Part shown: one piece after another, positions 1 through 34,424 of the stretch | Numbering within the stretch: the stretch's first letter is position 1 | Layout of the letters: each line of letters starts with the position of its first letter | IMG/VR virus record: IMGVR_UViG_3300045988_092413 | Coordinates: 1-34,424 of that record | Length of the DNA stretch: 34,424 nucleotides | Strand: one strand, 5' to 3' | Source: a virus | Translations under genes and position numbers: made by a program | Notes under the pieces: model-generated | Seen by the model: only the letters and a program-made list of their open reading frames with translations | Databases searched by the model: none | What the model was told of the DNA's origin: nothing

Positions 1-119
1 ATTTTTTTTTGCGCGTTTTGATGCGCGCCCGCGCGCTTGGTCGGGTACCAGTTTTCCTTTTCCTGCGCAAAAAAATCCGCCTTTAGGCGGACATTGCGAA
101 GGAACCAGGCGTACATCTC
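1..119. repeat. Terminal direct repeat, identical to 34306-34424 (circular-assembly overlap or terminal redundancy)
   Basis: Base-by-base comparison: atttttttttgcgcgttttgatgcgcgcc...caggcgtacatctc is present at both ends. Confidence 0.95.
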
Positions 120-1619
120 ATCGTGCCACCAGTAGACATTTCCATCCAGCAGCTCCTCCTTATATGCCTTCATCGGCGCGTTAAACGTCATGGGTCCTTG
201 CCTCACTTCGCGGCAGATAAAGCCGTCTGCCGTCAGCGCTTTGACCAGCTCCGGAGCGTTATACGGATCGTAGCCGATGGCGCGAAGGTCGTACAGCGCT
301 CGCTGCTCCTTAAACCAGTCGCGCATCGCCTCATACTTGACGTAGTGGCCGGGCACGATGGTCAGCCAGCCGCGATCCACAAAATGCTGCCAGTCCTTCG
401 TTTCGCGTCCGTTGCCGCGCTTGATCTTATCCTCCGGCATCCAGCTATGCTGCTTGATGCCAGTGCGGTGATCCGGCAGGCCGATCACGACAGCCGAGCT
501 AGTAACATCCTCGCTCTTGGAGAGGTCAAACCCTCCCCAAGCCGGGCACAGCAGCGGCACATCCGCCTCGCCGATGTCGTTGCGCCGGATCGTGTCCAAC
601 GAGACAAAGACGGATTCAGGCGGCTGAGTAAAGACGTTAAGCTGCTTGGTGACAAAGTCGGCCAGCTCGGTCGGCGAGCGCTTCGCGCGCTCATAGTCGA
701 GCACCATGTCCTCTAGGTCGAGCAGCACGCCCATCGCCGGGTTGGCCATGATCCACGTCTCTGGATCGTGGTAGTCAAGCCCAGCGTCGATCTCGTAGAT
801 GATCGGCAGATAACTGTCGATGGCTCTTTCATCCAGTTCCGGATCGCGGTCAAGCACCTTTTTAGCGTACAAATAGTGGTACATGGCCGGGCCGTCGAGC
901 ACCGTGCCCGCGGTCATCGTATACCAGAGCAGCGGCTGGCGGCGTTTTTTCATGGGGCGAAGGATTTGGTTTATCTGATCAAAGCTGACCTCCGCCTCCA
1001 TCTCATCCTTGACCACAAAATAGGGCCGCAGGCCGTCAAGGCTCGCCGGGTCGTTGGTCAGGTAGGTCACGCGCGTAAAATCCGGCTCGTAGATGCTTTC
1101 ACTGCGCCGCAGCTTGATCTGTCGGCGCAGCACAGGACTCATCAGCATCTGGCCGTAAAAATCCATATATCCGCGCTTGGCCTGCTTGCCGTTGTTCGCG
1201 CAAAAATAATTTTCCGCGCCCGTCTCTCCGCCCTTGGTGGACATGTAGCCCATTTTGCCCGACATGCGCGCAGTCTTGCCGTTGCCGCGGCCGACCATCT
1301 CCAGCACCTCGCGGTATCGCCGCGCGTCCTTTTTTTCATCAATCCAGCCAAAAGCCTGACAATCAACAAACTCCTGCCACGGCATAAACCGAAATTTTTC
1401 GTAGTTTCCGGCCGTCGGTCGAAGAAACTCTTCGCAAAATCGCACCGGCCGCCGCGCCAAGTCCGGGTCGTAGCGGTAGCGCCAGCCCCCTTTCTCTGCG
1501 CGGCGCAGGTCGTCGATAAAATGCCGCGCCTGTTGGTGGATCGTCACCGGCGCGCGGATGCGATCCTCAAGCACATCCACGGCATACTTTCCCGCTGGGC
1601 TGCGCATTGCCTGCGTCAT
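1..1619 (-). CDS. terL: Terminase large subunit, 5' portion; the ORF leaves the window at base 1 and continues at 34424 down to 34200
   Basis: Hand translation from ATG at 1619: MTQAMRSPAGKYAVDVLEDRI... Walker A-like VGRGNGKT, Walker B-like YFVVKDEME, nuclease-domain motifs GGFDLS, GYDPYN. The last residues (MYAWFLRNVRLKADFF...) are the same sequence as ORF 34200..34421. Not in the ORF track because it is open at the window edge. Confidence 0.9.
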   Translation of the reverse strand, partial: MTQAMRSPAGKYAVDVLEDRIRAPVTIHQQARHFIDDLRRAEKGGWRYRYDPDLARRPVRFCEEFLRPTAGNYEKFRFMPWQEFVDCQAFGWIDEKKDARRYREVLEMVGRGNGKTARMSGKMGYMSTKGGETGAENYFCANNGKQAKRGYMDFYGQMLMSPVLRRQIKLRRSESIYEPDFTRVTYLTNDPASLDGLRPYFVVKDEMEAEVSFDQINQILRPMKKRRQPLLWYTMTAGTVLDGPAMYHYLYAKKVLDRDPELDERAIDSYLPIIYEIDAGLDYHDPETWIMANPAMGVLLDLEDMVLDYERAKRSPTELADFVTKQLNVFTQPPESVFVSLDTIRRNDIGEADVPLLCPAWGGFDLSKSEDVTSSAVVIGLPDHRTGIKQHSWMPEDKIKRGNGRETKDWQHFVDRGWLTIVPGHYVKYEAMRDWFKEQRALYDLRAIGYDPYNAPELVKALTADGFICREVRQGPMTFNAPMKAYKEELLDGNVYWWHDEMYAWFLRNVRLKADFFAQEKENWYPTKRAGAHQNAQKK

Positions 1620-1624
1620 CACGC

Positions 1625-2044
1625 TCACAGGCCATCGCCTCCGCTATCATCCGGGGGCGGATCGTCGCCGTCAAAGCCCTCCCATGCCTTGTCCAGCTCG
1701 TCCGTCTCTTCTTCTTCGTCTTCCTTCGCCGGGCGGCCGCGCGGGCGCTGCGGCAAGAGCAGCAGATCGTCGAGGTTTTTGCGCATCTCGCTCTCACACA
1801 TCGCGCGATTTTTGATGAGGCCGCGCAGCTTGGTCGGCGTTTTTTCTTCCGCGCCACCCCTGACCACGTCCGCGATCATCCGCGCGATGTCCGCGGCCTC
1901 CTGCATCCACTGCACCGCGCTTTTGAGCACCGCAGCCGTCGCGGCGTTCCACTGTCCACGATCCTCAAGCATCGCTTTCCCCTCGGCGTACAATTTCTGC
2001 GCGCCTTTGTCGCTGATGCCGTACAAATCCGGGTCTTTTTTCAT
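1625..2044 (-). CDS. Putative terminase small subunit
   Basis: 139 aa, immediately upstream of terL (stop 1625-1627, terL ATG 1619). RBS GGGAGGTG 7 nt before the ATG. Helical N-terminus and acidic C-terminal tail. Called mainly by position and size. Confidence 0.6.
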   Translation of the reverse strand: MKKDPDLYGISDKGAQKLYAEGKAMLEDRGQWNAATAAVLKSAVQWMQEAADIARMIADVVRGGAEEKTPTKLRGLIKNRAMCESEMRKNLDDLLLLPQRPRGRPAKEDEEEETDELDKAWEGFDGDDPPPDDSGGDGL

Positions 2045-2063
2045 GGCTCATCACCTCCCATTG

Positions 2064-2426
2064 TTACTCCACCGTAATCTTGGCCACCCTCACGCCTGCC
2101 TGCTCGGCCAGCGTCGGCGTGTCGTCCTTCATGCCGCCGTGCCGCTCCGGGTGCATCCGCTCGTGGCAGGCGTCGCACAGGCTCATCAGGTTATCAAGCT
2201 CAAGCGCCTTTTCCGGCGCGACTTTGAGCGGCACGATGTGATGCACCATCGTCGCCCGCACCGGGTGAGGTCGTCCGGCGTAGTCCATCTCATATCGCCC
2301 CTCTTTGGCGCACAACTGACACTCGCCCATGTCCCGATCAAGCGCCTGCTTTCGCGCCGCGCGCCACGCCACCGTGCTGTAAAATGGATCTGTCTCTTTG
2401 ATCGGTTTTGTTTTATCCATCCACAT
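2064..2426 (-). CDS. HNH endonuclease (packaging-associated)
   Basis: HHIVPLKVAPEKALELDNLMSLCDACHERMH plus an upstream CQLC give an HNH zinc-finger signature. Start moved to ATG 2426 (RBS GGGAGGA). The longer track ORF from 2510 would translate a terminator hairpin. Confidence 0.8.
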   Translation of the reverse strand: MWMDKTKPIKETDPFYSTVAWRAARKQALDRDMGECQLCAKEGRYEMDYAGRPHPVRATMVHHIVPLKVAPEKALELDNLMSLCDACHERMHPERHGGMKDDTPTLAEQAGVRVAKITVE

Positions 2427-2451
2427 CCGGCAGCGTCCTCCCGAAAAGAAA

Positions 2452-2487
2452 AACCGCAGGCGCGGCGTTTTCGCCGGTCTTGCGGTT
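2452..2487 (-). terminator. Intrinsic terminator-like hairpin (bidirectional), 25 nt upstream of the HNH start
   Basis: aaccgca...tgcggtt outer stem with ggcg-tttt-cgcc inner stem. On the minus strand it is followed by TTTTTCTTTTC, on the plus strand by CCTTTTTTT. Confidence 0.6.
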
Positions 2488-2520
2488 CCTTTTTTTGTTG
2501 AGTGTATCATACTGCATAGG

Positions 2521-2612
2521 CAAGAGGGTGTACAAGGGGTAAATGGGGGTATATAGGGGTATTTGCGGGTATAAGAGGGTATGGAGGGGTGTCAACGGGT
2601 ATTTAGGGGTAC
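2521..2612. repeat. Array of nine 10-bp phased RGGGGTA repeats (candidate cos/TerS recognition or late-activator binding array)
   Basis: GGGT ends at 2529, 2540, 2550, 2560, 2570, 2580, 2590, 2600 and 2610. The register is visible directly in the 10-base blocks. Confidence 0.85.
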
Positions 2613-3082
2613 CAGCAGTTATCACGATCTCTGCTTTCCCTCATCAGATGCGCATACGTTTCATTTTTGTCCAGCCCGCTGGTCGTCTCGGCCAGCAGCT
2701 CGCGCCCGCGTCTGTATAGCGCCTTTGCGGTGTCTGTGCTGGTCAGACGCAGCTCACCCATCATCTGCCGCATTGTCTGCCCCTCCACCAGCCGCCCGTA
2801 CAGCATCCGCGCCGCCAGCGGGTCGCTGAGCCGCCCGCACAGTATGGCTGCCTCGATCACCTCAAAGCTGTGCGCCGTCTCCCTCGCTTTCGCGCAACGC
2901 TCCATGGCATCGATCTGCGCAAGTATCTCGCCCATCTTATCGCCATCCCCGCCATGTCCCTGGGCGTCCGTGCTGCGGGTGCAGCGGGTCAGCGCATCGC
3001 GCGCAAAGTATATCCGCGCATTAAGCTGCTCCATCTCCTGCGCGTATGTCTGGCAGCGCCGCAGCACGTCAAGCCCAGTCAT
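2603..3082 (-). CDS. Putative late-gene transcriptional regulator with sigma-70 region-4-like C-terminal HTH
   Basis: 159 aa. C-terminal LYGRLVEGQTMRQMMGELRLTSTDTAKALYRRGRELL resembles an ECF-sigma region 4 HTH. It is the last gene before the packaging operon. Confidence 0.5.
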   Translation of the reverse strand: MTGLDVLRRCQTYAQEMEQLNARIYFARDALTRCTRSTDAQGHGGDGDKMGEILAQIDAMERCAKARETAHSFEVIEAAILCGRLSDPLAARMLYGRLVEGQTMRQMMGELRLTSTDTAKALYRRGRELLAETTSGLDKNETYAHLMRESRDRDNCWYP

Positions 3083-3085
3083 CGG

Positions 3086-3526
3086 TCAATCCTCCCCTTT
3101 ATCTGTCCACGGGTTTCTCGCCATTTCCTCTGTCGTCGGTTCCTCGCGCCACAAGCGCCACTCGATCTCATAGCTGTCCATCGCATTTGCTTGACACATA
3201 CTAATTATACGGTTAGATGTAAGGTACACTCTGGGCATCATGCTCGGTTTAATCCGGCATTCCAGCCAAAGCGGAATGCATAGACGTGTAAGACCAACAG
3301 CCAAGTGTACCTCGTCCAGCGTCAGCGGCCTACCGAGGCGCTCCGGCACACCTCTCGCCGCCCTCTCCGCGCTTGCTTTTGCATCTTCTGCCGTGTCGGC
3401 CTTTCCGCCATATGGTGCGCACACGCCGCACTTGCAGACGTACTGTCCCCAGTGGCGGTCTTGCTCGTCATACGCCCAGTAGCTCATCTCGCGGCCGCAC
3501 CAGCGGCAAAAGATTTTGTTTTTCAC
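3086..3526 (-). CDS. Hypothetical protein with N-terminal 4-Cys zinc ribbon (Lar-like)
   Basis: GTG start at 3526 preceded by AGGAGGG. CRWCG...CKCGVC motif. The track ORF from 3619 overlaps the upstream gene and lacks an RBS. Confidence 0.55.
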   Translation of the reverse strand: MKNKIFCRWCGREMSYWAYDEQDRHWGQYVCKCGVCAPYGGKADTAEDAKASAERAARGVPERLGRPLTLDEVHLAVGLTRLCIPLWLECRIKPSMMPRVYLTSNRIISMCQANAMDSYEIEWRLWREEPTTEEMARNPWTDKGED

Positions 3527-5573: not shown

Positions 5574-6410
5574 TTACAATGTTTTCAATCTTGCCTGTTT
5601 GCGGAAGCAAGCGGGAATTCGTTCCGCGTCGCAGACCACCGTATTGTCGCAGACCACCGTATTGTCGCAGACCACCGTATTGCCGCAGACCACCGTATTG
5701 CCGCAGACCACCGTATTGCCGCAGACCACAGCATTGCCGCAGACCACAGCATTGCCGCAGACCCGCGTATTGCCGCAGACCACCGTATTGCCGCAGCCCC
5801 ACGCATCGCCGTAGGCCCACGCACTGTTGTAGACCACCGCATCGCCGTAGACCTGCGCACTGTTGTAGACCACCGCATCGCCGTAGACCTGCGCATTGCC
5901 GTAGACCCACGCATTGCTGGAAACCAACGCATTGCCGTAGACCCGCGCATTGCCGTAGACCTGCGCCTTGTCGTAGACCCGCGCCTTGCCGTAGACCTGC
6001 GCATTGCCGTAGACCTGCGCCTTGTCGTAGACCCGCGCATTGCCGTAGACCTGCGCATTGCCGTAGACCTGCGCCTTGTCGTAGACCCGCGCCTTGCCGT
6101 AGACCTGCGCATTGCCGCAAACCCGCGCATTGCCGTAAACCCGCGCATTGTCGGAAACCCGCGCATTGTCGGAAACCTGCGCATTGTCGGAAACCTGCGC
6201 ATCGCCGTAGACCCACGCATCGCCGTAGACCCACGCATTGCTGGAAACCCACGCATTGCCGTCATGGCTGAGATTTTTGTCTTTTTCAATCCATCCGCCA
6301 AGGTCGCCTTTTTTGACGCAGTGCGTCGGGATGTCTACCAGTGCCCGGATGCGGCGGAGCGTATACCCACACCACACTTTGTTTTCCCCTGTAAACTCAA
6401 ATTTTTTCAC
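5574..6410 (-). CDS. Hexapeptide-repeat (left-handed beta-helix type) protein, 35 uninterrupted repeats
   Basis: GTG start 6410 with RBS GGAGGGA. 51-aa N-terminal domain, then NAxVYG-type hexapeptides x35, ending in a CGNTVV/CDNTVV run. The repeats keep all other frames open, which explains four overlapping track ORFs. Confidence 0.8.
   Translation of the reverse strand: MKKFEFTGENKVWCGYTLRRIRALVDIPTHCVKKGDLGGWIEKDKNLSHDGNAWVSSNAWVYGDAWVYGDAQVSDNAQVSDNARVSDNARVYGNARVCGNAQVYGKARVYDKAQVYGNAQVYGNARVYDKAQVYGNAQVYGKARVYDKAQVYGNARVYGNALVSSNAWVYGNAQVYGDAVVYNSAQVYGDAVVYNSAWAYGDAWGCGNTVVCGNTRVCGNAVVCGNAVVCGNTVVCGNTVVCGNTVVCDNTVVCDNTVVCDAERIPACFRKQARLKTL
5628..6257. repeat. 18-bp coding tandem repeat (x35) with 54-bp higher-order units
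   Basis: Examples: gaccaccgtattgccgca x3, gaccacagcattgccgca x2, and a recurring gcattgccgtagacctgcgccttgtcgtagacccgc block. Confidence 0.9.
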
Positions 6411-6426
6411 CCGTTATCCCTCCATC

Positions 6427-9408
6427 TCACGTAAACGGCAGCGGCTCATTATCTACCGGGGTAAACCCTTCGGCGGGCGCGCTGTCCTCCTGCGTCGTGC
6501 CTGTGCCATCGATGCGCGCGCGGTCAATCCAGAGGAGCTTGAGCGTCCTGTCCTTGATCCGCTTGTTGCGCAGCGGCGTGGGTCGTCCGCGATCCATGCC
6601 AGGCATACACATGCCCATCTCCATCATCTGGCGGCGAACAGCCGTCGCGCTCATCGCAAGGCTGCTTTCTCGGTCCTTGAGGTTGCGGCGCACGCACTGA
6701 TCGATGGCCTCCGCGTCGAAATAGTAAAAATCGGCGTCCCGCCAGCCGACGACCGGCCGGTTGGCGTAGTCCCTGCGCCCGTCCACCTGCGGCGTCGGGC
6801 TGGTGTCGGCCAGATCGACGTAGGCCGCGGCCTGCGTGACGATCAGCGAGCGGATCACGCTGACGTAGACGTGCGCCGGGGTCATGTCCGCGATGTCCTC
6901 GCCCTGGCGGCCGATGTTTTCGGCGATGCCTGCCAGCGTCTTGGCGTACAGAGCGTCGATCTCCGGCGCGCTCATTGCGCCGACCGCGCCCAGCCAGTCC
7001 AGCATCATCCGGCAGCCCATCGTCAAAAAGGCTGCGCTCTCTTTGAGGCGGGCAAAGCGCGGGTCGATGTCCATCTTTTCGGCTTCGCGCATCGCGTCGG
7101 CCATCCGCTCCTCCAACTCGTCGCCCAGACTGTCGTATCGCTCCATCAGCCACTTGATGTAGCTCCGCATCCCCGCGCGATACGCGCCGCCACGCTGTAG
7201 CCTTGCGTATGGTTCCAGCGCGTCCGTCGTCTTGGCGATTTCGCCGCGCTCGACGTGGATGACGTACAGGCGCAGCGTGCGCCCCTCGTTGATCTCCGGC
7301 AGGATTTCGCCCGTCATGGTGATGGTACTGCGCACCGGACGCCCCTTGATGGTCTGCTTGTCCGCGCTCTGCCGGTTTCGCGCCGCGCGGTCGGAAGCCG
7401 CGCTGATGAGGTTGTTGGCGACGCGGTTCAGCTCGTCGCTCTCCCTCCTTGTCTTGGTTTGGAAAAAGTCGTCGCACGTAAAGAGCGTGTCCTTGCAGTA
7501 ATAGGGCGCGTCTGATGTCCAGTTGGCGGTCGAGCGGAAATTCGCGGGCATCTGCTTGGCGTGAAAATCCCCAAACATCGACTGGATGTACCCCTGCAAT
7601 GTGCTCTTAAAGCTGCCGCTCGCGCCGACGAGGAAAACCACATAGCCCGGCGTTCGTCCGCTCTGCACCATCGTGCTGTACAGCGGCCCGAGAAACGCCT
7701 GCGCCAGCAGCGGCATCACAATCCGCGCGTCAAATCCCTTTGCCAGCGCCGCCACCGCCTGCGCGCCGCCCTGCTCGATCTCATCCTCCGTCTTGCCCTT
7801 GATCTCCGGCAGGCGCAGGTGATAGTGCTGGCTGGCGTTGACCAGCTCCACGCTCACATCGTCCGCGCCAATCGCGCCGTCGTGATACATGTAGATCAGC
7901 CGCTCGCCGATGTGCTTGAAGCCGGTATAGCCGTAGATTGTCCGATCTTTCGCCCCCTTCTGGCCGCCGCGCAGCAGCGCGTCCTTGACATATCCGGCGG
8001 TCAGGCCGCCGGGGTAGATGTTGCCGTATGCTTTCCACACCTTCGCGGGCCATTTCATCGCCAAAAACTCATCGTTTTTAACGTCCGCATCCGGCAGGCT
8101 TCGCCCGCTCGGCGTTCTCGCCGCGACGATCCACTCCGTGTCCTGCGTCATGCCGTCGTCGCGGGTGATCGTCTCCTTGAGCTCCGGCACAAAGTCGCAG
8201 AGCGGTTTTGCCCAGGCGGCCTTTCCGTGTCCCATGATCCGGCACAAGCGCCCGTTTTCGATGGCGTAGTCGTGCAGCCCCATGTAGTGGACAAAGCGGT
8301 CGTCATCCCCGCCGTCGTCTCCCCCGCCTCCCCGAGGGAAAACCGAATTCGCATTCGGTTTTCTCTCGCTTTCGGCAGGTTTCGACGCGGCCTTTTTGGC
8401 TTTTGCCTCGCCCATGTCGAGCACCTTACCCTGCCGCACATACGGCACCGCCTTGTCCAGCAGACCGGCGAAGGTCTTGCGGATCGCCTCGCGTTTCCAC
8501 CCGCGACCGGCCTGCATCTCGTGCGCCCAGTCGGTAAAATCGCCTTTGGCAAAGCGCTCTTGCTCCTCAGTCGTCAGATAATCGACCAGGCGCAGCGTCG
8601 CAAGCTCGCCGACTTTGCCGATCAACTGCTCGCAGACATACGCGCAGAGTTTTTCGCCCGCGTCGTCGTTGTCCGGGATGTAGATGACGCGCCTCGCGCC
8701 GCTGAGCGCCTCGGTGTAGGCGGGCAGCCACTTGCCATCCAGCCGCCCCTTGCCCGCGCCGTATGCGCTGGACACCGCGCAAAAGCCGAGCGCCGCAAGG
8801 TTGTTCGCGTCCTTTTCGCCCTCGACGATCAGGATGGTTTCGCCCTGCGCCTTGGCCGCCAGCATCTCCGGCAGCCGGTAGAGCAGATCATGCCACAGGT
8901 CGCCGACGTAGAGCTTGCCGTCTTCCCCGTAGCTCTGAAAAGCAAAGGTCTTTTTTCGCTCGCCGTTTTTGTCGTACCCCTCGTACCGCGCCTTGAGCTT
9001 TTTGATCTTGCCCTCCGCGTCCTTGTACTCGTAGATGCGCGTCAGCTCGTAGTCGATGTCTTTGATCTTCCACCGATGGCCGACGGCAAAAGGCCGCCGC
9101 GCCAGCTTGGGCGGCTCGGCCTTGCGCTCCGGCTTTTTCCGGGCATACCGTTCCGGCGGTTCGCCCGTCATCGCGTCCACCGCCACATCTTGCAGCGTGT
9201 AGCCCAGCGCTTCCGCAACGTCCTTGCGGTCTGCGCCGCACGCGTGGCATTTCATCACGGTCTGCCCGTCGTCCCCGATATAGCAGTGCAGGCTTGGGTC
9301 GTGGTCGGCATGACAGGGGCAGATCGCCCAAAAACCGCCCGGCTTATCGCTGCGCTTACGATCATCCACGCTGAGCAGATCGCGCCAAGCATCCAGCCTC
9401 ATCCCCAT
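6427..9408 (-). CDS. Bifunctional DNA primase / helicase (zinc finger + TOPRIM + P-loop NTPase)
   Basis: CPCHADHDPSLHCY...CHACGA zinc motif. TOPRIM ILIVEGEKDANNL and IYIPDNDDAGEK. C-terminal Walker A FLVGASGSFKST. 993 aa. Confidence 0.9.
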   Translation of the reverse strand: MGMRLDAWRDLLSVDDRKRSDKPGGFWAICPCHADHDPSLHCYIGDDGQTVMKCHACGADRKDVAEALGYTLQDVAVDAMTGEPPERYARKKPERKAEPPKLARRPFAVGHRWKIKDIDYELTRIYEYKDAEGKIKKLKARYEGYDKNGERKKTFAFQSYGEDGKLYVGDLWHDLLYRLPEMLAAKAQGETILIVEGEKDANNLAALGFCAVSSAYGAGKGRLDGKWLPAYTEALSGARRVIYIPDNDDAGEKLCAYVCEQLIGKVGELATLRLVDYLTTEEQERFAKGDFTDWAHEMQAGRGWKREAIRKTFAGLLDKAVPYVRQGKVLDMGEAKAKKAASKPAESERKPNANSVFPRGGGGDDGGDDDRFVHYMGLHDYAIENGRLCRIMGHGKAAWAKPLCDFVPELKETITRDDGMTQDTEWIVAARTPSGRSLPDADVKNDEFLAMKWPAKVWKAYGNIYPGGLTAGYVKDALLRGGQKGAKDRTIYGYTGFKHIGERLIYMYHDGAIGADDVSVELVNASQHYHLRLPEIKGKTEDEIEQGGAQAVAALAKGFDARIVMPLLAQAFLGPLYSTMVQSGRTPGYVVFLVGASGSFKSTLQGYIQSMFGDFHAKQMPANFRSTANWTSDAPYYCKDTLFTCDDFFQTKTRRESDELNRVANNLISAASDRAARNRQSADKQTIKGRPVRSTITMTGEILPEINEGRTLRLYVIHVERGEIAKTTDALEPYARLQRGGAYRAGMRSYIKWLMERYDSLGDELEERMADAMREAEKMDIDPRFARLKESAAFLTMGCRMMLDWLGAVGAMSAPEIDALYAKTLAGIAENIGRQGEDIADMTPAHVYVSVIRSLIVTQAAAYVDLADTSPTPQVDGRRDYANRPVVGWRDADFYYFDAEAIDQCVRRNLKDRESSLAMSATAVRRQMMEMGMCMPGMDRGRPTPLRNKRIKDRTLKLLWIDRARIDGTGTTQEDSAPAEGFTPVDNEPLPFT
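8339..8364 (-). repeat. 26-nt hairpin element, copy A (inside the primase linker coding region)
   Basis: The minus strand reads agaaaaccgaatgcgaattcggtttt, identical to the plus strand at 12438-12463. 10-bp perfect stem aaaaccgaat/attcggtttt with loop gcga. Confidence 0.95.
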
Positions 9409-10177: not shown

Positions 10178-10409
10178 CTCCCTCAAAGGGCATTTCGTTC
10201 TGCGCATGCCGCGCGATGATCGCCTCGACAAGCGCCCGCTCAAGCTGATCGGCAATGTCGTCCTGTCCCTCGTAGTCCCCGGCCATGGTCTGGATCGCGT
10301 CCACACACAGGCAGGCCAGCTCGTCGAGCAGCTCGTCCGTGGTGCCGGAAAATCTGCCGCTGATGCGGATGCTTTCATCTGCGTCGCGCGTCACATCTGC
10401 CCGTATCAT
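10155..10409 (-). CDS. Hypothetical acidic small protein
   Basis: 84 aa. ATGA overlap with the cro-like stop. No recognisable domain. Confidence 0.5.
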   Translation of the reverse strand: MIRADVTRDADESIRISGRFSGTTDELLDELACLCVDAIQTMAGDYEGQDDIADQLERALVEAIIARHAQNEMPFEGDDNGAVH

Positions 10410-10684
10410 TCAAAGCCCTCCAGATTGTCTTCGTCGGTCGTCGGTTCTTCCGTCTGGAGCGCCGCATCTTCCTGCGGCGCGTCCATCTCGGGGAAAAGCG
10501 CGTCGATGCTCACGCCCAAGGCGCGCGCCATCTTCGGGAGCTTCTCAAGAGTCTTTCCTCGCGTTCCATTTGCCAGTCTTGCAATCGTCACAAGTGTAAG
10601 CCCAGACTTTTCTGCAAGCTCATTCATGGTCATGTTTTTTTCGCGCAAGGTCTTTTTCAGCCTATCCGCAAATCCGTTTTCCAT
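10406..10684 (-). CDS. Cro-like XRE-family HTH regulator
   Basis: MENGFADRLKKTLREKNMTMNELAEKSGLTLVTIARLANG is an HTH_3 type motif. ATG 10684 lies 6 nt after GAGGTG. Divergent from the cI-like gene. Confidence 0.8.
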   Translation of the reverse strand: MENGFADRLKKTLREKNMTMNELAEKSGLTLVTIARLANGTRGKTLEKLPKMARALGVSIDALFPEMDAPQEDAALQTEEPTTDEDNLEGFE

Positions 10685-10701
10685 TATTTTCACCTCGTGC
10701 G

Positions 10702-10852
10702 TGCCATTTTGTCACTTACTCGCGTTACAGCTCTATTATATTTGCCGTTTTGGTACATGTCAAGTACCTTAAAAAAATTTTTTGCCAATTTGGCACACCA
10801 AAAGGATTTTACCGTTTCGGCAAGTATTATATTATAAAGTACCATTTCGGCA
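10702..10852. promoter_or_regulatory. Five 13-bp dyad operators, consensus TRCCRTTTYGGYA, in the cro/cI intergenic region
   Basis: 10702 tgccattttgtca; 10743 tgccgttttggta; 10783 tgccaatttggca; 10810 taccgtttcggca; 10840 taccatttcggca. Confidence 0.75.
10735..10763 (-). promoter_or_regulatory. Consensus sigma-A/sigma-70 promoter for the early (cro-like) operon
   Basis: The minus strand reads TTGACA-17 nt-TATAAT (-35 at 10758-10763, -10 at 10735-10740). Operator O2 lies exactly in the spacer. Confidence 0.75.
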
Positions 10853-10872: not shown

Positions 10873-11229
10873 ATGCTTGGTACACTTGGCGACAGACTCC
10901 GCGCGATACGCGAGGATCACGACGTGATGCAAAAAGACCTTGCGGCCGAGTTCGGGATTACTCATAGCGCATTAAGCCGCTATGAGCAGAATAAGCGCGA
11001 GCCACCCGTTGATTTCATCGTAGCATTTTGCCACTATTTTAACGTCACATCTGATTTCCTGTTTGGCATGTCCGACGATTATCGCCCACCCGTGAACGTC
11101 AGTATTCCACCGACTCTTTTATCCCGCGATCCCTATGCCGATTTATCTGCCGAGCATCGAGCAACGCTTGATGCTATGGCTGATGTATTCCGTCAGCAGG
11201 AGGCTGCGCAAGGACAAAAAGAGGCATGA
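10873..11229 (+). CDS. cI-like XRE-family repressor (short, no peptidase domain)
   Basis: ATG 10873 after AAGGAGGTG. LRAIREDHDVMQKDLAAEFGITHSALSRYEQNKREP is an HTH_3 motif. 118 aa. Confidence 0.8.
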   Translation: MLGTLGDRLRAIREDHDVMQKDLAAEFGITHSALSRYEQNKREPPVDFIVAFCHYFNVTSDFLFGMSDDYRPPVNVSIPPTLLSRDPYADLSAEHRATLDAMADVFRQQEAAQGQKEA

Positions 11230-11292: not shown

Positions 11293-11715
11293 TCAGTTGC
11301 GGCTGATCTCTTTCGCCGCGCGAAGGGCTGCCTCCACGTCGATGCCGGTATTCACCGGCTCCTGCTTGGGCCAGTTCGCCGGATCGTCATGGGTCATCGG
11401 CTTGGCCTCAGTCTTTTTCTCCGAAACCGACTGCACGGCGATCTTCTCCGGCAGCTTGATCTTGCCGATCGCTTCGCCGTTGGCATACAGCAGACTGATG
11501 ATGCTTTCCATCCCATCAAAGAGCCAGCGCGCCAGCAGGGCTACACAGGTAAGCATTGCGCCCTGAAAAGCCGCATTGTCCATATGGTTCAGATCGCTGT
11601 AAATCGTCAGCATGATAAGCAGCACCGCGATAATCGTCGCGAAGATCTTCGCGTGCCGCACGCCTGCCGTCATCTTCTTCTCCACGTCTACATTGGTTAA
11701 ATTCGATTTCCTCAT
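11293..11715 (-). CDS. Hypothetical membrane protein in the lysogeny module (2 predicted TM helices)
   Basis: RBS GGAGGAG 7 nt before the ATG. Hydrophobic stretches IFATIIAVLLIMLTIY and AMLTCVALLARWLF. Has its own promoter and terminator. Confidence 0.6.
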   Translation of the reverse strand: MRKSNLTNVDVEKKMTAGVRHAKIFATIIAVLLIMLTIYSDLNHMDNAAFQGAMLTCVALLARWLFDGMESIISLLYANGEAIGKIKLPEKIAVQSVSEKKTEAKPMTHDDPANWPKQEPVNTGIDVEAALRAAKEISRN

Positions 11716-11745
11716 GGTCTTTCTCCTCCGTTATCGTTTTTGTCC

Positions 11746-11774
11746 ATTATAGCGCCCATTCTACTCAAATGCAA
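11746..11774 (-). promoter_or_regulatory. Promoter for 11293..11715
   Basis: The minus strand reads TTGCAT-17 nt-TATAAT. The first operator of the array starts 10 bp upstream of the -35. Confidence 0.55.
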
Positions 11775-11783
11775 TCCACTTTA

Positions 11784-12022
11784 TACCGTTTCGGCATGTA
11801 TTTTTAACAAAGTGTTATTCCATTTCGGTAAATTCTACCGTTTCGGCAATCAATTTTAACAGTTTGTTTTGCCGTTTTGGTCGATTTATACCATTATGGC
11901 AAGCATTTTTAACAGTCTGTTATACCATTTCGGTATACTTTTTACCATTTTGTTAATGCGTTTAATGATTTGTTATACCGTTTCGGCAAGCATTTTTTAA
12001 CATTTTGTTTACCAAAACGGCA
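11784..12022. repeat. Array of nine operator-type 13-bp palindromes organised in tandem units of about 52 bp
   Basis: Sites at 11784, 11818, 11836, 11870, 11889, 11923, 11943, 11976 and 12010, with the same consensus as the cro/cI operators. Each unit also carries a CATTTTTAACA-like box. Confidence 0.85.
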
Positions 12023-12033
12023 AAAAATCGCCA

Positions 12034-12400
12034 TGTTACGCTTTCGTGTTACGATTTTTGCCCCAATGTTACGTATTTTTTCCCAAAATCGTAACACGGT
12101 TTTTGCTAGGCCACGCCTAGGTTTTTCGGGGGTGTGTTACGATGTTACGTATTTTTGCGGGATATAGGGCCCATATACACACACGCAACAAAACGCATCG
12201 CAAAAAAATGCGCAAAAAATCATCTCGCATTGAGGCCGCGAAACTGGGTACTAGGGGTAAAAATACGTAATTTTCGTAACATTATATATTTTTATAATAA
12301 ATAATACTTAATTATTCTATATATTATTCAATTCCTTGTGTCCCAAAAATGTTACGATTTTTACGTAACACGCCACTCCAAAATCGTAACATTCGTAACA
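12034..12400. repeat. Eleven TGTTACG / CGTAACA repeats flanking an AT-rich core (12283-12335)
   Basis: Direct copies at 12034, 12047, 12067, 12135, 12143 and 12350. Inverted copies at 12090, 12275, 12364, 12385 and 12394. Confidence 0.85.
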
Positions 12401-12408
12401 ACCTGATG

Positions 12409-12438
12409 TTATCCACAATCTTTTCAAACTTATCCACA
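12409..12438 (+). promoter_or_regulatory. Two perfect DnaA-box 9-mers (TTATCCACA) in direct orientation, 21 bp apart
   Basis: 12409-12417 and 12430-12438 both read ttatccaca. The second abuts hairpin copy B. Confidence 0.6.
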
Positions 12439-12463
12439 GAAAACCGAATGCGAATTCGGTTTT
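12438..12463 (+). repeat. 26-nt hairpin element, copy B (immediately upstream of the serine recombinase RBS)
   Basis: agaaaaccgaatgcgaattcggtttt, followed directly by GAGGAGG and the TTG start at 12480. Confidence 0.95.
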
Positions 12464-12479
12464 GAGGAGGTGCTTTGAC

Positions 12480-14096
12480 TTGAAAACCGCTGTCACCTAT
12501 GCCCGCTTTTCCTCCGCGCGCCAGCATGAGACGTCTATCGAGGCGCAGCGCGACGCGATGGCGAAGTGGTGCGCCCAGCGCAGCGTCCGGATCGTGCAGG
12601 AGTACGCAGATCGCGCCGCATCCGGCACCAAGACCGAAGGCCGCGATGACTTTCTCCAGATGTTGGCCGATCTCAAGCAGCGGCGCGTGGACTATGTGCT
12701 CGTCCACAAGTATGATCGCTTCGCCCGCAACGAAAACGACCAGTATTTTTATATGGCCATGATCGAGCAGCGCGGTGCAAAGCTCGTCGCTGTCGCGCAG
12801 GAGTTCGGCGACGGACCGGAGGCGCGCTTTATGGTCGGCGTCATCACGGCCTATAATGCCTTTTATTCGGCGAACCTGTCCGCGGAGTCGAAAAAAGGCA
12901 AAAACATCATCAAGCAGCATGGCAAGCATACCGGCGGCCCCTATCCGATCGGGTATGACCCGGACGGGAAGGGCAACTATATCGTCAACGAGGTTGAGGC
13001 GTATTTTGTCCGCGAGCTGTATAACGCCGTCATCACGCACAGGCGGCTGGATGACGTCGTCGCCGAGATGCGCGATGCCGGTCTGCGCGGCCGCTATGGC
13101 GGCGAGCTGAAAACCGCCAACCTCGCGCGGATCGTCCGCAACCCCGTCTATATGGGCGTGTACCAGCGCACGCTGTCGGATGGCACGCTCGTCCGCCTCG
13201 AAAACCACCACACAGCCATTGTCGATCAAAAAACCTATGAGGAGGCTAACCGCATTATGGACGCACGCGCAAACGCCGGTCGAAACGACCGCAAAATCTA
13301 CCCGTTGAGCGGTATCGCTTACTGCGCCTGCTGTGGCGCAAAGCTGCTCGCCCAGACCACCCGCAAAGACGCCAACCACGAATACACGTCGTATTACTGC
13401 TCTAAGTGCCACGATCTCCACCGCATCCCAGCCAAGGAGCTGGATGGCGCTGCTGTTGACTATCTCAACGCGCTTTTCGCGCCGGAGCGCCGCGCCGAGC
13501 TGGCAAAGGCCGTCGAGGACTACTCCAAGCGCCTGATCTCCTCCGCGGCCTCGCGCCAGCCGTCAGCGTCGCGCGAAATCAAAAAGCTCCAGCGCGAGAT
13601 TGACTCGCTGGCCGCCAACCTTGCCACGGGCGTTTTGTCGCCGGACATGCTGACCATGATCGACCAGCAGATCACCACCCGCCGCGAGCGCATCAAGATT
13701 TTGCAAGAGACCAGCGCCACGCCTGCGCCCGTAACCGCCGCAGATATCGACTCTTTTTTCGCCGACGCCGCCACGCTCTCGCTTGGCATGGACCCGCGCT
13801 ATCTGCGCCAGGTCATGCGCAAGTACATCAAGCGCGTCACCGTCCACACAACGGAGATCGAGATCGTCTCCACCTTTGACGACTGGATCGGTGAGAAACT
13901 CCGCTCCTGCCGAGAAAGCAGCGACGACGGAGGTGCGGACAGACAAAGATTAAGAATCGCATCAAACCCGTGCATGTTCGATGTGATTCTTACACTTTCA
14001 TTTGTCCACCGCGTCCCTCTCCCGGAGCGATACCGTCCATTTCACAAGGAGTTGTACAATTTGCACAGAAACAAAATAAGGCACAGAAAAAAATAA
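12480..14096 (+). CDS. Large serine recombinase (phage integrase)
   Basis: N-terminal AVTYARFSSARQ (catalytic Ser context), resolvase-like domain, recombinase domain, zinc ribbon CACCG...CSKCH, C-terminal coiled-coil. TTG 12480 lies 9 nt after GAGGAGG. The start codon is uncertain. Confidence 0.88.
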   Translation: MKTAVTYARFSSARQHETSIEAQRDAMAKWCAQRSVRIVQEYADRAASGTKTEGRDDFLQMLADLKQRRVDYVLVHKYDRFARNENDQYFYMAMIEQRGAKLVAVAQEFGDGPEARFMVGVITAYNAFYSANLSAESKKGKNIIKQHGKHTGGPYPIGYDPDGKGNYIVNEVEAYFVRELYNAVITHRRLDDVVAEMRDAGLRGRYGGELKTANLARIVRNPVYMGVYQRTLSDGTLVRLENHHTAIVDQKTYEEANRIMDARANAGRNDRKIYPLSGIAYCACCGAKLLAQTTRKDANHEYTSYYCSKCHDLHRIPAKELDGAAVDYLNALFAPERRAELAKAVEDYSKRLISSAASRQPSASREIKKLQREIDSLAANLATGVLSPDMLTMIDQQITTRRERIKILQETSATPAPVTAADIDSFFADAATLSLGMDPRYLRQVMRKYIKRVTVHTTEIEIVSTFDDWIGEKLRSCRESSDDGGADRQRLRIASNPCMFDVILTLSFVHRVPLPERYRPFHKELYNLHRNKIRHRKK

Positions 14097-14276
14097 AAAA
14101 TCCGACATTTCAAGGAAAATTTCTCTGCCGTGTAGCGCTTCGGTGCTGATTCAGGCCGTTATTTAATGCAAATATGGGGGAGGGTACCCCTCCCATCGAA
14201 TCTTTTGTGCAGTTTTGCCAATGCACTCGTGGGAAACCCTGTCGCTGCCGCTAGGCGGCAAACCCGCATAAAAAAG

Positions 14277-14300
14277 CAGCCGCACAAAACCGTGCGGCTG
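14277..14300 (-). terminator. Intrinsic terminator closing the minus-strand accessory region
   Basis: The minus strand reads CAGCCGCAC-GGTTTT-GTGCGGCTG followed by CTTTTTTAT. Confidence 0.75.
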
Positions 14301-14314
14301 TTGAATCCTTGCCC

Positions 14315-14758
14315 TCACTTGGCAATGGCACGCATATATCGCGCGACCTTGTGCGGCCTGGCGTCCTTGTCGTCGATAAACGCCCGCGCCATCTTGCCGT
14401 AAAAATCCGGCGTGTTGTTCCCCGCGGCCGAAATGACTGGTCCATAATCCGACCAGATCATATTGAGAGCGACAAAAAATGCAATCATCTGATCGTCTGG
14501 CACACCGAGCTTATGCCCCAGCTCCGTCGCCTCGGCGTATGTCCAGCGCCCGCCATGCGGTCTGGATGTGTCGGCGTTGTCCATGCGATCCACCCATGCC
14601 TGCGCCTGCTCCATCGTGATCACCTCGCCGCCCTCGCACTCCTTATCGAGCGCGTCCAATGCGATGGACATCAGCGCAAAATCGCGGACGTTGCCAAGCG
14701 TCTGCGGACACTGCATGATCTGCTCCCTGGCCTCTCTGATAGCCTCAGCTGTCCACAT
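14315..14758 (-). CDS. Hypothetical protein
   Basis: 147 aa. RBS AGGAGGGA 5 nt before the ATG. No recognised domain. Confidence 0.55.
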   Translation of the reverse strand: MWTAEAIREAREQIMQCPQTLGNVRDFALMSIALDALDKECEGGEVITMEQAQAWVDRMDNADTSRPHGGRWTYAEATELGHKLGVPDDQMIAFFVALNMIWSDYGPVISAAGNNTPDFYGKMARAFIDDKDARPHKVARYMRAIAK

Positions 14759-19584: not shown

Positions 19585-20349
19585 TTAGTCATTTGTAACC
19601 TTCCACCGCCCGACCAGCGTCACGTACGCGCCGTTGCCGTCGGTGAGCGTCGTCGTGTCGCCGGTTTCCTCGCCGCCGTCGCCCGCATCGCCAGCGCCCG
19701 GCGCATCCTCGACCAGATACTCGCTGGACATATACCCGGCCTCGCCGCTTGCCAGCTCGCCGAAGACCCAGCCCGTGCCGCCCGCCTCGCGGATGATGTT
19801 CACCCGCGCGCCGTTTTCGGCTTTGGCGATGATCTTTGACCGCGTGCTTGCGCCCTCGCGGATGTTGAGATATCCGCTTGTTACGCTCACTGTTGCGTTG
19901 CCAAAAATCTTTTCCGCTTCGCTCACTTCCGTTTTTCCTCCTTCCGGATAGTCCACCTCGATCATCCGATGCACCCCCAGCCCGTCCCACCCTGCCTTCG
20001 CCGTCAGCGCGGTTTCGACCACGCCGCCCCGGCTCTTGCTTGAGTGGATGACCGTCCCGTTCTCCGTCACCAGCCCGGTGTGATTCACGTCGCCCGTGCC
20101 AACGCCTATGAACGCCAGCATTCCCGGCTTCGCGCCGGAAATGCCCGACTGCCGCCAGATCAAATGGCGATACTTCGGCACGCTGTCAAAGCTGTTCCAA
20201 AGCTCGTTCGTCCCTGCCGTCGTGTAGCGCTTGTCGCCGCCCGGCGCTGTGCGGATGACCTTCTTGATGAGGTTGATACAGTCCAGCTCGCTGTACGCCG
20301 TCCCGATCAGCCCCCGCGCCGCGCGGATGGCAGCTTCTGTTTGGATCAA
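19585..20349 (-). CDS. Endolysin: NlpC/P60 cysteine peptidase + SH3 domain
   Basis: GTAYSELDC (catalytic Cys context), NHTGLV (His). SH3-like GYLNIREGASTRSKIIAKAENGARVNII...GYMSSEYL. TTG start. Confidence 0.85.
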   Translation of the reverse strand: MIQTEAAIRAARGLIGTAYSELDCINLIKKVIRTAPGGDKRYTTAGTNELWNSFDSVPKYRHLIWRQSGISGAKPGMLAFIGVGTGDVNHTGLVTENGTVIHSSKSRGGVVETALTAKAGWDGLGVHRMIEVDYPEGGKTEVSEAEKIFGNATVSVTSGYLNIREGASTRSKIIAKAENGARVNIIREAGGTGWVFGELASGEAGYMSSEYLVEDAPGAGDAGDGGEETGDTTTLTDGNGAYVTLVGRWKVTND

Positions 20350-21243: not shown

Positions 21244-22725
21244 TCACACCCCCTTAACGCCGTAAATTCTGACCGGGATACACGCACGTTGATCGTCGCT
21301 TGTGCTGTCTGTCAATCGTATAGCCTTCCCAAAATGATTTGTGTCTAGAGTGAAATCTCGGAATTGGCCACCAGCGCCATGTTCAGTATCTGTGAGGAAA
21401 TAAAATCTTAACCTATCCCCTTTTTTTGCCACGGCAGAAAACGAACGCACGTTTGAGTTGACATATGCAAGAAAATAAATCATGCAATAATTGTAGGCTT
21501 TCCAGTCGAATGTTACGGTCTGTTCGTCGAACGAGCTGTTAGGTGAGGCGTTTTCCCACAATACTTCCGTCGAATACTTTTTCTCAATTTCGTCCTTTAG
21601 CTGACTAAGCTCAGCTCCCGTCGCTTTCGCATCTGCGGCTTTTCTCGCCATTGTCAGCGTCGCGTCCGTGCCGGAGAGCGCCCCAACGTCCGCCGCTGTC
21701 GGCATCCAGTCGTCAGCACGCGCCCCAACGTCCGCTGCGGTCAACGTCACTTTCCCCGCCTCGTCCGGCGCTTTACCGTTGATCGTCAGGCTGCCCAGAC
21801 TCCCCGTGTCGCCGCGCGGGATCGTCAGCTCGATCACCGGCGCTTCCGCCGTGCCGGTCTGCTTGACGCTCGCCGCCGTTCCCGGCTCGCCGGTCTTGAC
21901 TTGCACTGTGATCTGAGGGGTTGCGCCGGGGTCGCCTTTATCGCCCTTGGGCAGGCCGAGCACGATATTGTAGTGCCCGTCCACCTCAGTCAGCTTTGCC
22001 GTCGGTGCAGCGCCCGCCGCAAGGCCAGTCGCTGTGATGGTCATGTCGTCGATCTTGGTGGCAGCTTCCGTGGCAGTAGTAGCCGCGGCTTTCGCCGCGG
22101 AAGCGCCATCTGTCGCCTGCCCAGCCGCGTTTCTCGCGTCGCTCGCCGCGCCATTAGCGGCCTCGATAGCCGACGCGACTTTCTTCAGCGCATCGCCGAC
22201 CGATGCAGCAGCACCCTCTGCCTTTTCCGCGGCCGCATCGCATCGCCCGATAGACGCCATAATCTCGTCGAGATTGGGGATGCGCTTACCCTCATCCAGG
22301 ATGTCGTCCCCAGTCGGATCGATCGCCATGACGGCCATGCGCGCGACCGCAACACTCGCTCCGTCCCTGGTCACGCGGATCGTGCAACCGACCGGGCCGG
22401 GGATATTGGCCGCATCCCTCGGCAAAACTGCTTTTATCTCACCGCCGCTCTCTACCGTCGCCTCGCTATATGTAGTGCCGCCGCTCTCTACCGTCGCCTC
22501 GCTATATGTAGTGCCGCCGCTCCCGTCCTCAGACAAGGCGCGCGCACAGTAGAGCGATGCGGTCGCTCCGGTCAAGTCTACCGGCACGCCGTTTTTTTTG
22601 ATCGTCACGATCCAGACCAGCGCCTGCACATCGCCCTTGACGATCGGCTGATCCCGCACGAGGACGGGGTTGCTCTGCGTCAGCTCGATCGTCTGGCGTT
22701 GCGTAAATCCCTCCATTTTTGCCAT
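21244..22725 (-). CDS. Tail fibre / receptor-binding protein with BppU-like N-terminal domain
   Basis: N-terminal Ig-like baseplate-upper-protein pattern, Ala-rich coiled-coil, short collagen-like PKGDKGDPG, and a distinct AT-richer C-terminal domain. Confidence 0.75.
   Translation of the reverse strand: MAKMEGFTQRQTIELTQSNPVLVRDQPIVKGDVQALVWIVTIKKNGVPVDLTGATASLYCARALSEDGSGGTTYSEATVESGGTTYSEATVESGGEIKAVLPRDAANIPGPVGCTIRVTRDGASVAVARMAVMAIDPTGDDILDEGKRIPNLDEIMASIGRCDAAAEKAEGAAASVGDALKKVASAIEAANGAASDARNAAGQATDGASAAKAAATTATEAATKIDDMTITATGLAAGAAPTAKLTEVDGHYNIVLGLPKGDKGDPGATPQITVQVKTGEPGTAASVKQTGTAEAPVIELTIPRGDTGSLGSLTINGKAPDEAGKVTLTAADVGARADDWMPTAADVGALSGTDATLTMARKAADAKATGAELSQLKDEIEKKYSTEVLWENASPNSSFDEQTVTFDWKAYNYCMIYFLAYVNSNVRSFSAVAKKGDRLRFYFLTDTEHGAGGQFRDFTLDTNHFGKAIRLTDSTSDDQRACIPVRIYGVKGV
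22443..22522. repeat. 36-bp in-frame tandem duplication (2.2 copies) inside the fibre N-terminal domain
   Basis: cgccgctctctaccgtcgcctcgctatatgtagtgc occurs twice in a row, encoding GGTTYSEATVES twice. Confidence 0.9.
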
Positions 22726-34199: not shown

Positions 34200-34424
34200 T
34201 TATAGGTCAAAAATGATCGGTCGGCTGTCTCGATAGCTGTCGCCGGGGATGATCCTATCCTCCATCCGCAGGATGTAAGCGTTCATCCCCGCCATAAAGC
34301 CGTCAATTTTTTTTTGCGCGTTTTGATGCGCGCCCGCGCGCTTGGTCGGGTACCAGTTTTCCTTTTCCTGCGCAAAAAAATCCGCCTTTAGGCGGACATT
34401 GCGAAGGAACCAGGCGTACATCTC
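34200..34424 (-). CDS. terL: Terminase large subunit, 3' end (C-terminal about 74 aa; same gene as 1..1619 across the circular junction)
   Basis: ORF 34200..34421 begins with the peptide encoded at 1-119 on the minus strand. Contains KIDGFMA, typical of the terminase nuclease C-terminus. Combined gene is about 577 aa. Confidence 0.9.
   Translation of the reverse strand, partial: EMYAWFLRNVRLKADFFAQEKENWYPTKRAGAHQNAQKKIDGFMAGMNAYILRMEDRIIPGDSYRDSRPIIFDL
34306..34424. repeat. Second copy of the 119-bp terminal direct repeat
   Basis: Identical to 1-119. Confidence 0.95.

Follow-up and report, generated by a model that had tools for sequence, protein, structure and literature searches.

What does a phage do with eleven copies of one heptamer packed into a non-coding gap beside its integrase gene? 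The question is raised by positions 12034-12438 of the IMG/VR virus record IMGVR_UViG_3300045988_092413, which we analysed over its full 34,424 nucleotides (the window). A sequence-only reading of this DNA had noted copies of TGTTACG, an AT-rich stretch and two DnaA boxes, and had proposed that together they may be the phage replication origin, served by the primase-helicase encoded at 6427-9408. Our analysis supports that proposal through four lines of evidence: the iterons stand out as islands of conservation, the heptamer changes with the lineage, the primase-helicase has a structural match to the Rep protein of SaPIbov1, and comparable arrays occur in unrelated phages. We put the probability at about 0.7 that 12034-12438 serves a 34.3-kb temperate phage as its origin of vegetative replication, with iterons fired by a self-loading primase-helicase as in staphylococcal pathogenicity islands (SaPIs) and phage P4. 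The genome size follows from a 119-bp direct repeat at the window ends (1-119 and 34306-34424), which identifies the window as a circular assembly of 34,305 bp. The parts of the proposed origin, and the two genes most directly concerned with it, are these:

12034-12149: left iteron cluster, six exact matches to TGTTACG at 12034+, 12047+, 12067+, 12090-, 12135+ and 12143+.
12150-12274: central spacer between the iteron clusters, in which an alternating purine-pyrimidine tract at about 12175-12190 (ACACACACGC) and T-runs can be read off the sequence.
12275-12400: right iteron cluster, enclosing the AT-rich core, five exact matches at 12275-, 12350+, 12364-, 12385- and 12394-.
12283-12335, strand not applicable: AT-rich core and candidate DNA-unwinding element, 90.6% A+T.
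12409-12417 and 12430-12438, plus strand: two DnaA boxes, exact matches to TTATCCACA, 21 bp apart.
12440-12463: hairpin AAAACCGAAT-GCGA-ATTCGGTTTT, made up of an A-tract, a stem and a T-tract and immediately followed by the integrase ribosome-binding site GAGGAGG (12464-12470).
12480-14096, plus strand: large serine integrase of 538 residues with Resolvase, Recombinase and Zn_ribbon_recom domains.
6427-9408, minus strand: primase-helicase of 993 residues, the proposed iteron-binding initiator, characterised with Pfam, PHROGs, AlphaFold and Foldseek.

An exact match search found 11 copies of TGTTACG in 12034-12400 (six plus-strand, five minus-strand) and only two more in the other 34 kb, both isolated (at 19879 and 21511). 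Shuffles of the whole window contained 2.35 copies on average and seven at most, and from base composition we estimated that about 0.05 copies are expected in 370 bp. The sequence-only reading had given the same count and the same chance expectation. The iterons extend to a consensus of about 12 nt, R-TGTTACG-W-W-T-T-T, and the two at 12135 and 12143 in the left cluster are spaced by 8 bp. The non-coding gap that holds them (11716-12479) is wider than the 12034-12438 interval first singled out and has a GC content of 36%, compared with 59% for the genome. Gene calls on independent contigs placed no gene in this gap, Rfam and tRNA scans of it gave no match, and a literature search for the heptamer returned primer noise only.

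Nowhere in the genome is the duplex less stable than at the AT-rich core, whether windows of 40, 60 or 100 bp are compared; the 40-bp minimum falls at 12283-12322 with -34.5 kcal/mol against a mean of -61.4 (standard deviation 5.0). A 20-nt inverted repeat (12264-12283 and 12348-12367) brackets the core, with one iteron in each arm (12275- and 12350+). The coordinates and composition given earlier for this stretch were accurate, as was the division into six plus-strand and five minus-strand iterons, but the core is not midway between the main clusters as had been described: it sits inside the right-hand one. Exact searching also recovered the two direct DnaA boxes 21 bp apart that the sequence-only reading had reported, together with the third copy of TTATCCACA at 29964. 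None of 3000 shuffles of the gap produced two exact copies of this 9-mer.

We compared the window with other contigs and loci, designated here by L-numbers. In relatives whose primase-helicase is 63-97% identical (L007/L233, L232, L234, L087, L089 and L090), the same layout carries 7-11 copies of TGTTACG. Across an alignment of five gaps, 74% of the iteron columns were invariant, compared with 26-30% of the intervening columns (Fisher p = 4e-12); iteron positions are kept in L007, L087, L089 and L090, and the gap otherwise diverges. More distant members of the family (primase-helicase 31-44% and integrase 39-43% identical) keep the architecture and replace the heptamer:

L255: TGTTACA.
L091: TGTAATT.
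L256: TGTACC.
L257: TTGTCCG.
L008, L235 and L236: TCAACCG.

The common order is integrase, hairpin, iterons, AT-rich core, iterons, spacer with a GT/GC tract, iterons, promoter and small open reading frame (ORF), the last being absent from L257 alone. Conservation in related genomes, which the sequence-only reading had named as a check, holds for the layout of the array, and the heptamer itself switches by lineage. An alternating GT/GC tract occupies the equivalent spacer position in L255, L256 and L257; such tracts also occur in two arrays of unrelated phages, L185 (8660-8750) and L129 (9700-9720).

A heptamer that changes with the lineage implies a binder that is encoded by the phage and diverges along with it. 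Three proteins are present in all family members: the integrase, the primase-helicase and a DUF3102 protein. The DUF3102 protein was rejected as the binder after giving coiled-coil matches only. The CI- and Cro-like proteins were rejected as well, being exchanged among relatives in which the heptamer is unchanged: L090 has a LexA-like repressor yet keeps TGTTACG, and so do L087 and L089, in which CI and Cro either reach no more than about 32-40% identity or are undetectable. L234 combines an integrase of 63% identity with a primase-helicase of 96%, CI and Cro of 98% and unchanged iterons. Small early ORFs are absent from several of the array-bearing subfamilies; the protein p119 is a Lar-like zinc ribbon. 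The annotated phage genes include no separate initiator-like protein, and they include no polymerase, as the sequence-only reading had stated.

The primase-helicase begins with a DnaG-type CHC2 zinc ribbon and a Toprim domain (Pfam, PHROGs), Zn_ribbon_DnaG being found in 18 of the 26 family members and Toprim in 16. AlphaFold modelled residues 725-993 (nt 6430-7236) as a helical bundle and a winged helix (pLDDT 85). When this model was searched with Foldseek, the best PDB matches were both chains of 8tch (8tch_A/B), the SaPIbov1 Rep (E = 4e-4, probability 1.0), followed by the winged-helix protein TcpK. For a model of residues 372-760, 8tch_B was the only match with E <= 0.001 (E = 2.8e-5, 434 aligned columns). 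With both modelled halves, 8tch was the only PDB entry to be matched significantly. A search of the PDB with a sequence profile of the family gave no match, so there is no detectable sequence similarity to Rep. The putative recognition helix (residues 911-930) is 93% conserved within the TGTTACG type, where the protein averages 80%, and about 30% of it is common to the other iteron types, where the protein averages 39%; this pattern in the alignments fits a specificity determinant. Taken with the structural models, we infer that the C-terminal winged helix of the primase-helicase is the probable binder of TGTTACG. The phage collection contains no cultured phage with a full-length homologue of this protein. 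Most family members (homologues P0002-P0037) end in an acidic ...(I/L/M)PF tail, which here reads EPLPFT (window 6427-6470); speculatively, this tail, which resembles the C-terminal tip of SSB, may help recruit host replisome proteins.

Arrays of the same heptamer occur beyond the family. A scan of IMG/VR for three closely spaced copies of TGTTACG returned more than 120 contigs. Forty of these, among loci L112-L231, had 7-17 copies per 500 bp, and removal of three coding tandem repeats (L229, L225 and L162) left 37 arrays. The phages that carry them range from 29 to 64% GC and have no integrase or primase-helicase homologue in common with the window. The arrays at L185, L129 and L133 follow the same grammar: triplets and doublets at 8-9 bp, two sets that face opposite ways, and a centre that is AT-rich or purine-pyrimidine. 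Of the 37, about 25 are situated within a replication gene or immediately 3' of one, and the neighbours belong to at least five different protein families:

L185 group, L167 and L205: DUF5906 helicases.
L208, L171 and L158: Prim-Pol+PriCT+AAA_25 proteins.
L157: a zinc-ribbon primase-helicase.
L231 and L214: AAA_25 proteins.
L132: an ORF of 405 residues without a family match, listed with the AAA_25 neighbours.
L129: a DUF927+HTH_56 protein.
Eight loci: an ORF of about 300 residues directly upstream of a DnaC-like loader, a lambda-O-like arrangement.

Exceptions or unclear cases were L113, L133, L134, L160, L194/L116 and L202/L204. A single protein domain common to all TGTTACG-array phages was sought and not found, and hidden Markov models built from the window protein found nothing convincing in these phages, giving one marginal match, in L157.

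The part of the gap directly left of the iterons, which the sequence-only reading had not mentioned, adds a second kind of repeat. The features of this side are as follows:

11784-12022: eight copies of the 13-nt dyad TACCRTTTCGGYA, within repeats of about 51 nt.
11743-11758, minus strand: extended -10 promoter (TGcTATAAT) of a membrane-protein ORF, conserved in relatives.
11293-11715, minus strand: the membrane-protein ORF itself, 140 residues, divergent from the integrase.
10873-11229, plus strand: CI-like helix-turn-helix gene.
10743-10852: operators of the CI/Cro switch, four copies of the same 13-mer TACCRTTTCGGYA, between the Cro-like and CI-like genes.
10406-10693, minus strand: Cro-like helix-turn-helix gene.

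Judged by its repeats, the block at 11784-12022 looks like a distal cluster of CI/Cro-operator-like sites adjoining the origin. It overlaps the upstream part of the membrane-ORF promoter, and relatives that differ in CI/Cro type differ in this left part of the gap too. The TATAAT at 11743-11758 is invariant in all five aligned relatives and has an equivalent TGnTATAAT in L008 and L256; a simple promoter consensus scan did not list the element. The membrane ORF had no family match in Pfam or PHROGs. A small ORF borders the gap on the left in L007, L008, L087, L089, L090, L091, L255 and L256. At the other end of the gap, the hairpin at 12440-12463 has a folding energy of -13 to -15 kcal/mol (z about -2.5 to -3.2). 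Every subfamily has a hairpin directly ahead of this ribosome-binding site, each with its own sequence (L008 1620-1640; L091 9966-9989; L256 gap 15-38). The element is probably a bidirectional terminator or insulator, which probably shields the origin and the early region from antisense transcription running through the integrase.

In the mechanism that we propose, the C-terminal winged helix of the primase-helicase would recognise the 11 iterons, which lie in two clusters and in both orientations. Helicase hexamers would assemble on the opposite iterons that frame 12283-12335, melt the core and load themselves onto it. The protein would then prime with its own DnaG-type domain, and the host polymerase would be recruited after priming, because the phage encodes none. 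The DnaA boxes, as a lineage-specific accessory, may help the core to melt or link firing to host DnaA. Through the eight operator-like sites, the prophage repressor may act both at the origin and at the promoter next to it, and the core would become more negatively supercoiled as the integrase and the membrane ORF are transcribed divergently.

Several observations weigh against an origin of this kind. The array lies 2.3-3 kb upstream of the primase-helicase start, beyond seven genes, and adjoins the integrase instead. GC skew shows no inflection at the origin, a result dominated by transcription direction and uninformative. The AlphaFold model of residues 372-760 has a mean pLDDT of 64, its ATPase core is poorly modelled (below 50), and TM-scores to 8tch are modest, at 0.34-0.36. 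DUF927 (Pfam) was not detected in the 993-residue protein, only in its distant homologues. The co-variation of recognition helix and iteron is confounded by phylogeny. Three subfamilies whose architecture is otherwise retained (TCAACCG, TGTAATT and TGTTACA) have no DnaA boxes. Among the unrelated arrays, the C-termini of the adjoining replication proteins show no mutual sequence similarity, so the heptamer they have in common is probably a coincidence among very many heptamer origins, and the association speaks to the class of element, not to this particular binder. Finally, the proposed origin coincides with a divergent promoter region, and for that reason the suggestion, also made from sequence alone, that the region controls int expression keeps some plausibility.

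That suggestion leads to the first of the competing explanations, in which a phage DNA-binding protein on TGTTACG regulates the divergent integrase and membrane-ORF promoters, the core is promoter DNA and the DnaA boxes tune the integrase. The array does fill the space between divergently transcribed genes, with the conserved extended -10 at one end and a weak promoter-like match in the AT-rich core; the operators of the pSM19035 omega repressor are likewise arrays of 7-bp heptads in both orientations; and in most relatives the DnaA boxes lie 48-72 nt upstream of the integrase start codon. We nevertheless consider this explanation unlikely. CI and Cro are excluded as binders, and no other DNA-binding protein is common to all members, though all have the array, whereas the primase-helicase has a predicted Rep-like winged helix. 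No duplex in the genome is less stable than the core, and the arrays of unrelated phages adjoin replication genes, not integrases. In L257, moreover, the DnaA boxes are about 12 nt from the first iteron and the integrase start is about 280 nt away; having stayed with the iterons at a distance from that start, the boxes are tied to the origin rather than to the integrase. This leaves the question of whether DnaA is the initiator, with a host loader and helicase opening the core as in iteron plasmids and the heptamers modulating copy number or handcuffing. Two perfect boxes two helical turns apart beside an AT-rich element are what such an origin would have, and the phage, lacking a polymerase, requires parts of the host replisome. 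A box pair (one mismatch or fewer) has the same position and orientation in all seven of the seven TGTTACG-type gaps, and boxes are also present in L256 and L257, whose iterons differ from TGTTACG, so that they are conserved, always beside iterons, in three iteron-specificity subfamilies. Against this, three further subfamilies do without them, as noted above, and near the 37 unrelated arrays DnaA boxes are not above background; judged by these comparisons, the boxes are a lineage-specific addition. The phage also has its own primase-fused helicase resembling self-loading Reps, and it encodes no Rep_3/RepA-type initiator. A host-dependent origin therefore seems to us distinctly improbable.

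The position of the array beside the integrase raises the further idea, put forward in the sequence-only reading as "attP usage", that it is an attP with arm-like accessory sites. Some distant primase-helicase relatives seem to lend it colour: in L010 (1930-2410) and L016 (2519-2720), repeated motifs flank tRNA 3'-end fragments, and in L018 (1617-1870) a tyrosine integrase adjoins a similar heptamer array, for which arm sites and an origin are both conceivable. (L010 also has a separate AT-rich array of GGTGTA type beside its tRNA-fragment region.) The integrase of the window, however, is a large serine recombinase, not a tyrosine integrase with an arm-binding domain, and large serine recombinases are not known to use arm-type sites. 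Integrated relatives place the junction elsewhere. In L091, a contig of a Clostridia metagenome-assembled genome, host genes (SH3, PCC, response regulator, HAD, PNPOx) follow the integrase 3' end, and the gap upstream of the integrase still connects to the genes for the membrane protein, CI, Cro and the primase-helicase. In L256, ZorA/OmpA-type host genes lie beyond the integrase and the gap is contiguous with the phage early region; in L087, which is of the TGTTACG type, genes from another phage adjoin the integrase 3' end and the gap is again intact. Junctions at the integrase 3' end with an intact gap mean that the gap is not attP, and integrase C-termini diverge after about residue 470. 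From the sequences, attP appears to lie at, within or beyond the integrase 3' end (window 13890-14320; L091 11420-11540; L256 2217-2906), and we regard an attP in the gap as barely conceivable. Equally faint is the chance that the array is a partition (centromere-like) or packaging site: clustered short repeats in both orientations do occur in centromeres and in cos/pac sites, but no ParA or ParB is among the annotated genes, the phage family integrates, and the HNH and terminase large-subunit genes have a 10-bp tandem repeat of their own about 10 kb away, at 2526-2611.

The replication origin fired by the primase-helicase, which we prefer, can be extended into a joint reading that we hold only tentatively and think rather doubtful as a whole: the origin would be a composite control hub, bringing together operators, DnaA boxes and divergent promoters, built on an architecture of heptamer clusters, AT-rich core and purine-pyrimidine tract that is portable across at least five unrelated replicase families. 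Within such a hub, the repressor may itself silence firing, perhaps through a loop to the switch some 1 kb distant, and the DnaA status of the host may gate firing of a self-loading helicase that otherwise would not need DnaA.

Further observations concern the genes around the origin and the assembly. The integrase start was taken as the TTG at 12480, since four contigs carry the exact protein with this start; a start at 12462 was rejected because no protein with that start is on record. The integrase tail (residues 475-538) resembles low-complexity read-through. In L087 (positions 1-3343 of a 37.6-kb contig), a second, unrelated terminase and a P22-type portal lie directly past the integrase 3' end, and this prophage seems to sit beside or inside another. 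The region 3' of the integrase (12480-14096) is the end of the late operon, and four small ORFs lie between the primase-helicase and the Cro-like gene. Adjoining the primase-helicase, the minus-strand ORF at 5574-6410 contains 34 tandem 18-nt units (5643-6262) and encodes a hexapeptide-repeat protein of 278 residues (YdcK-like or left-handed beta-helix-like) that falls in PHROGs families of unknown function. The circular assembly was cut inside the terminase large-subunit gene. The long plus-strand ORF at 768-2501 is an antisense artefact. The repeat at 2526-2611, 7.7 copies of the 10-bp unit AGGGGTATAT just upstream of the HNH endonuclease and terminase genes, is a candidate terminase small-subunit binding site or cos region. 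A 36-bp perfect tandem repeat (2.2 copies, 22442-22522) lies within a late-region ORF of 493 residues.

The source phage comes from metagenome assemblies, and contigs encoding identical proteins are present in other such assemblies; relatives occur in Clostridia genome bins and in human faecal samples. A near-identity DNA search against phage records gave one irrelevant 263-nt match only. For this uncultured family of temperate Clostridia phages, the analysis supplies concrete candidates for the origin and the initiator. It also yields a natural specificity series, six heptamers paired with six variants of the recognition helix, which could serve the study of how winged helices read iterons and the design of orthogonal replicons for gut anaerobes. 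The kind of element (iterons, AT-rich core and helicase-initiator) is already well known. What is lineage-specific is its displacement to the integrase side, the DnaA boxes and the operator block, and the latter two suggest extra layers of control that have not been described for SaPI or P4 origins.

The closest comparison is with the SaPIs. SaPI Reps are self-loading SF3 helicases that double as initiators, and their C-terminal winged helix reads iterons of 5-6 nt; immediately after rep comes the SaPI origin, whose 6-12 iterons are divided by an AT-rich region, two or more of them lying on each side in opposite orientation, and SaPI5 encodes PriRep5, a primase-Rep fusion (PMC9371898). The window has 11 short iterons in two sets, and its AT-rich region at 12283-12335 is framed by opposite iterons (12275- and 12350+) with further copies on both sides. 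Its protein is a predicted helicase-initiator whose modelled C-terminus has the helical bundle and winged helix of Rep; the model of residues 372-760 (pLDDT 64) points to an SF3-type, Rep-like N-terminal domain and ATPase core; and, as in SaPI5, a primase is fused to the Rep-like helicase. The differences are that the iterons of the window are 7-mers, extending to about 12 nt, and not 5-6-mers; that neither in the window nor elsewhere in the family does the origin immediately follow the helicase gene; that a DnaA-box pair and a repressor-operator-like block abut the iterons; and that the window is a complete temperate phage, not a satellite.

In the alpha protein of P4, a DnaG-type primase is joined to an SF3 helicase and to a winged helix at the C-terminus (PMC2777425). 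The window protein, judged by its domains and models, likewise has its DnaG-type primase, its helicase and its C-terminal winged helix on a single chain. The P4 origin has short iterons and is separate from the alpha gene, as in the window. The iteron sequence is different, however; no D5_N, P4-helicase, DUF5906 or Pox_D5 match was found with Pfam in the window protein and 25 aligned homologues; and the window has no second iteron cluster in cis comparable to crr, its only other copies of TGTTACG being the two isolated ones. A more distant likeness is to the Cch/Cch2 proteins of SCCmec, which have DUF927 with a Cch helix-turn-helix domain. Distant homologues of the window protein have DUF927, and the unrelated TGTTACG array at L129 is downstream of a DUF927+HTH_56 protein, but neither DUF927 nor HTH_56 was detected in the window protein itself.

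The theta-type origin that the sequence-only reading had in mind is of the kind found in iteron plasmids and at oriC (P1, F, pSC101, RK2), in which iterons, an AT-rich unwinding element and DnaA boxes stand side by side. All three are present in the window, and to that extent the comparison stands. The iterons of the window, though, are 7-12 nt long and in both orientations, not direct repeats of 17-22 bp; Pfam, PHROGs and NCBIfam scans of the early region found no Rep_3/RepA-type (WH1-WH2) initiator; the phage encodes a helicase-primase; and the DnaA boxes are dispensable in sister lineages. The closest analogue of the proposed origin is therefore the SaPI/P4 type, rather than a DnaA-dependent plasmid origin.

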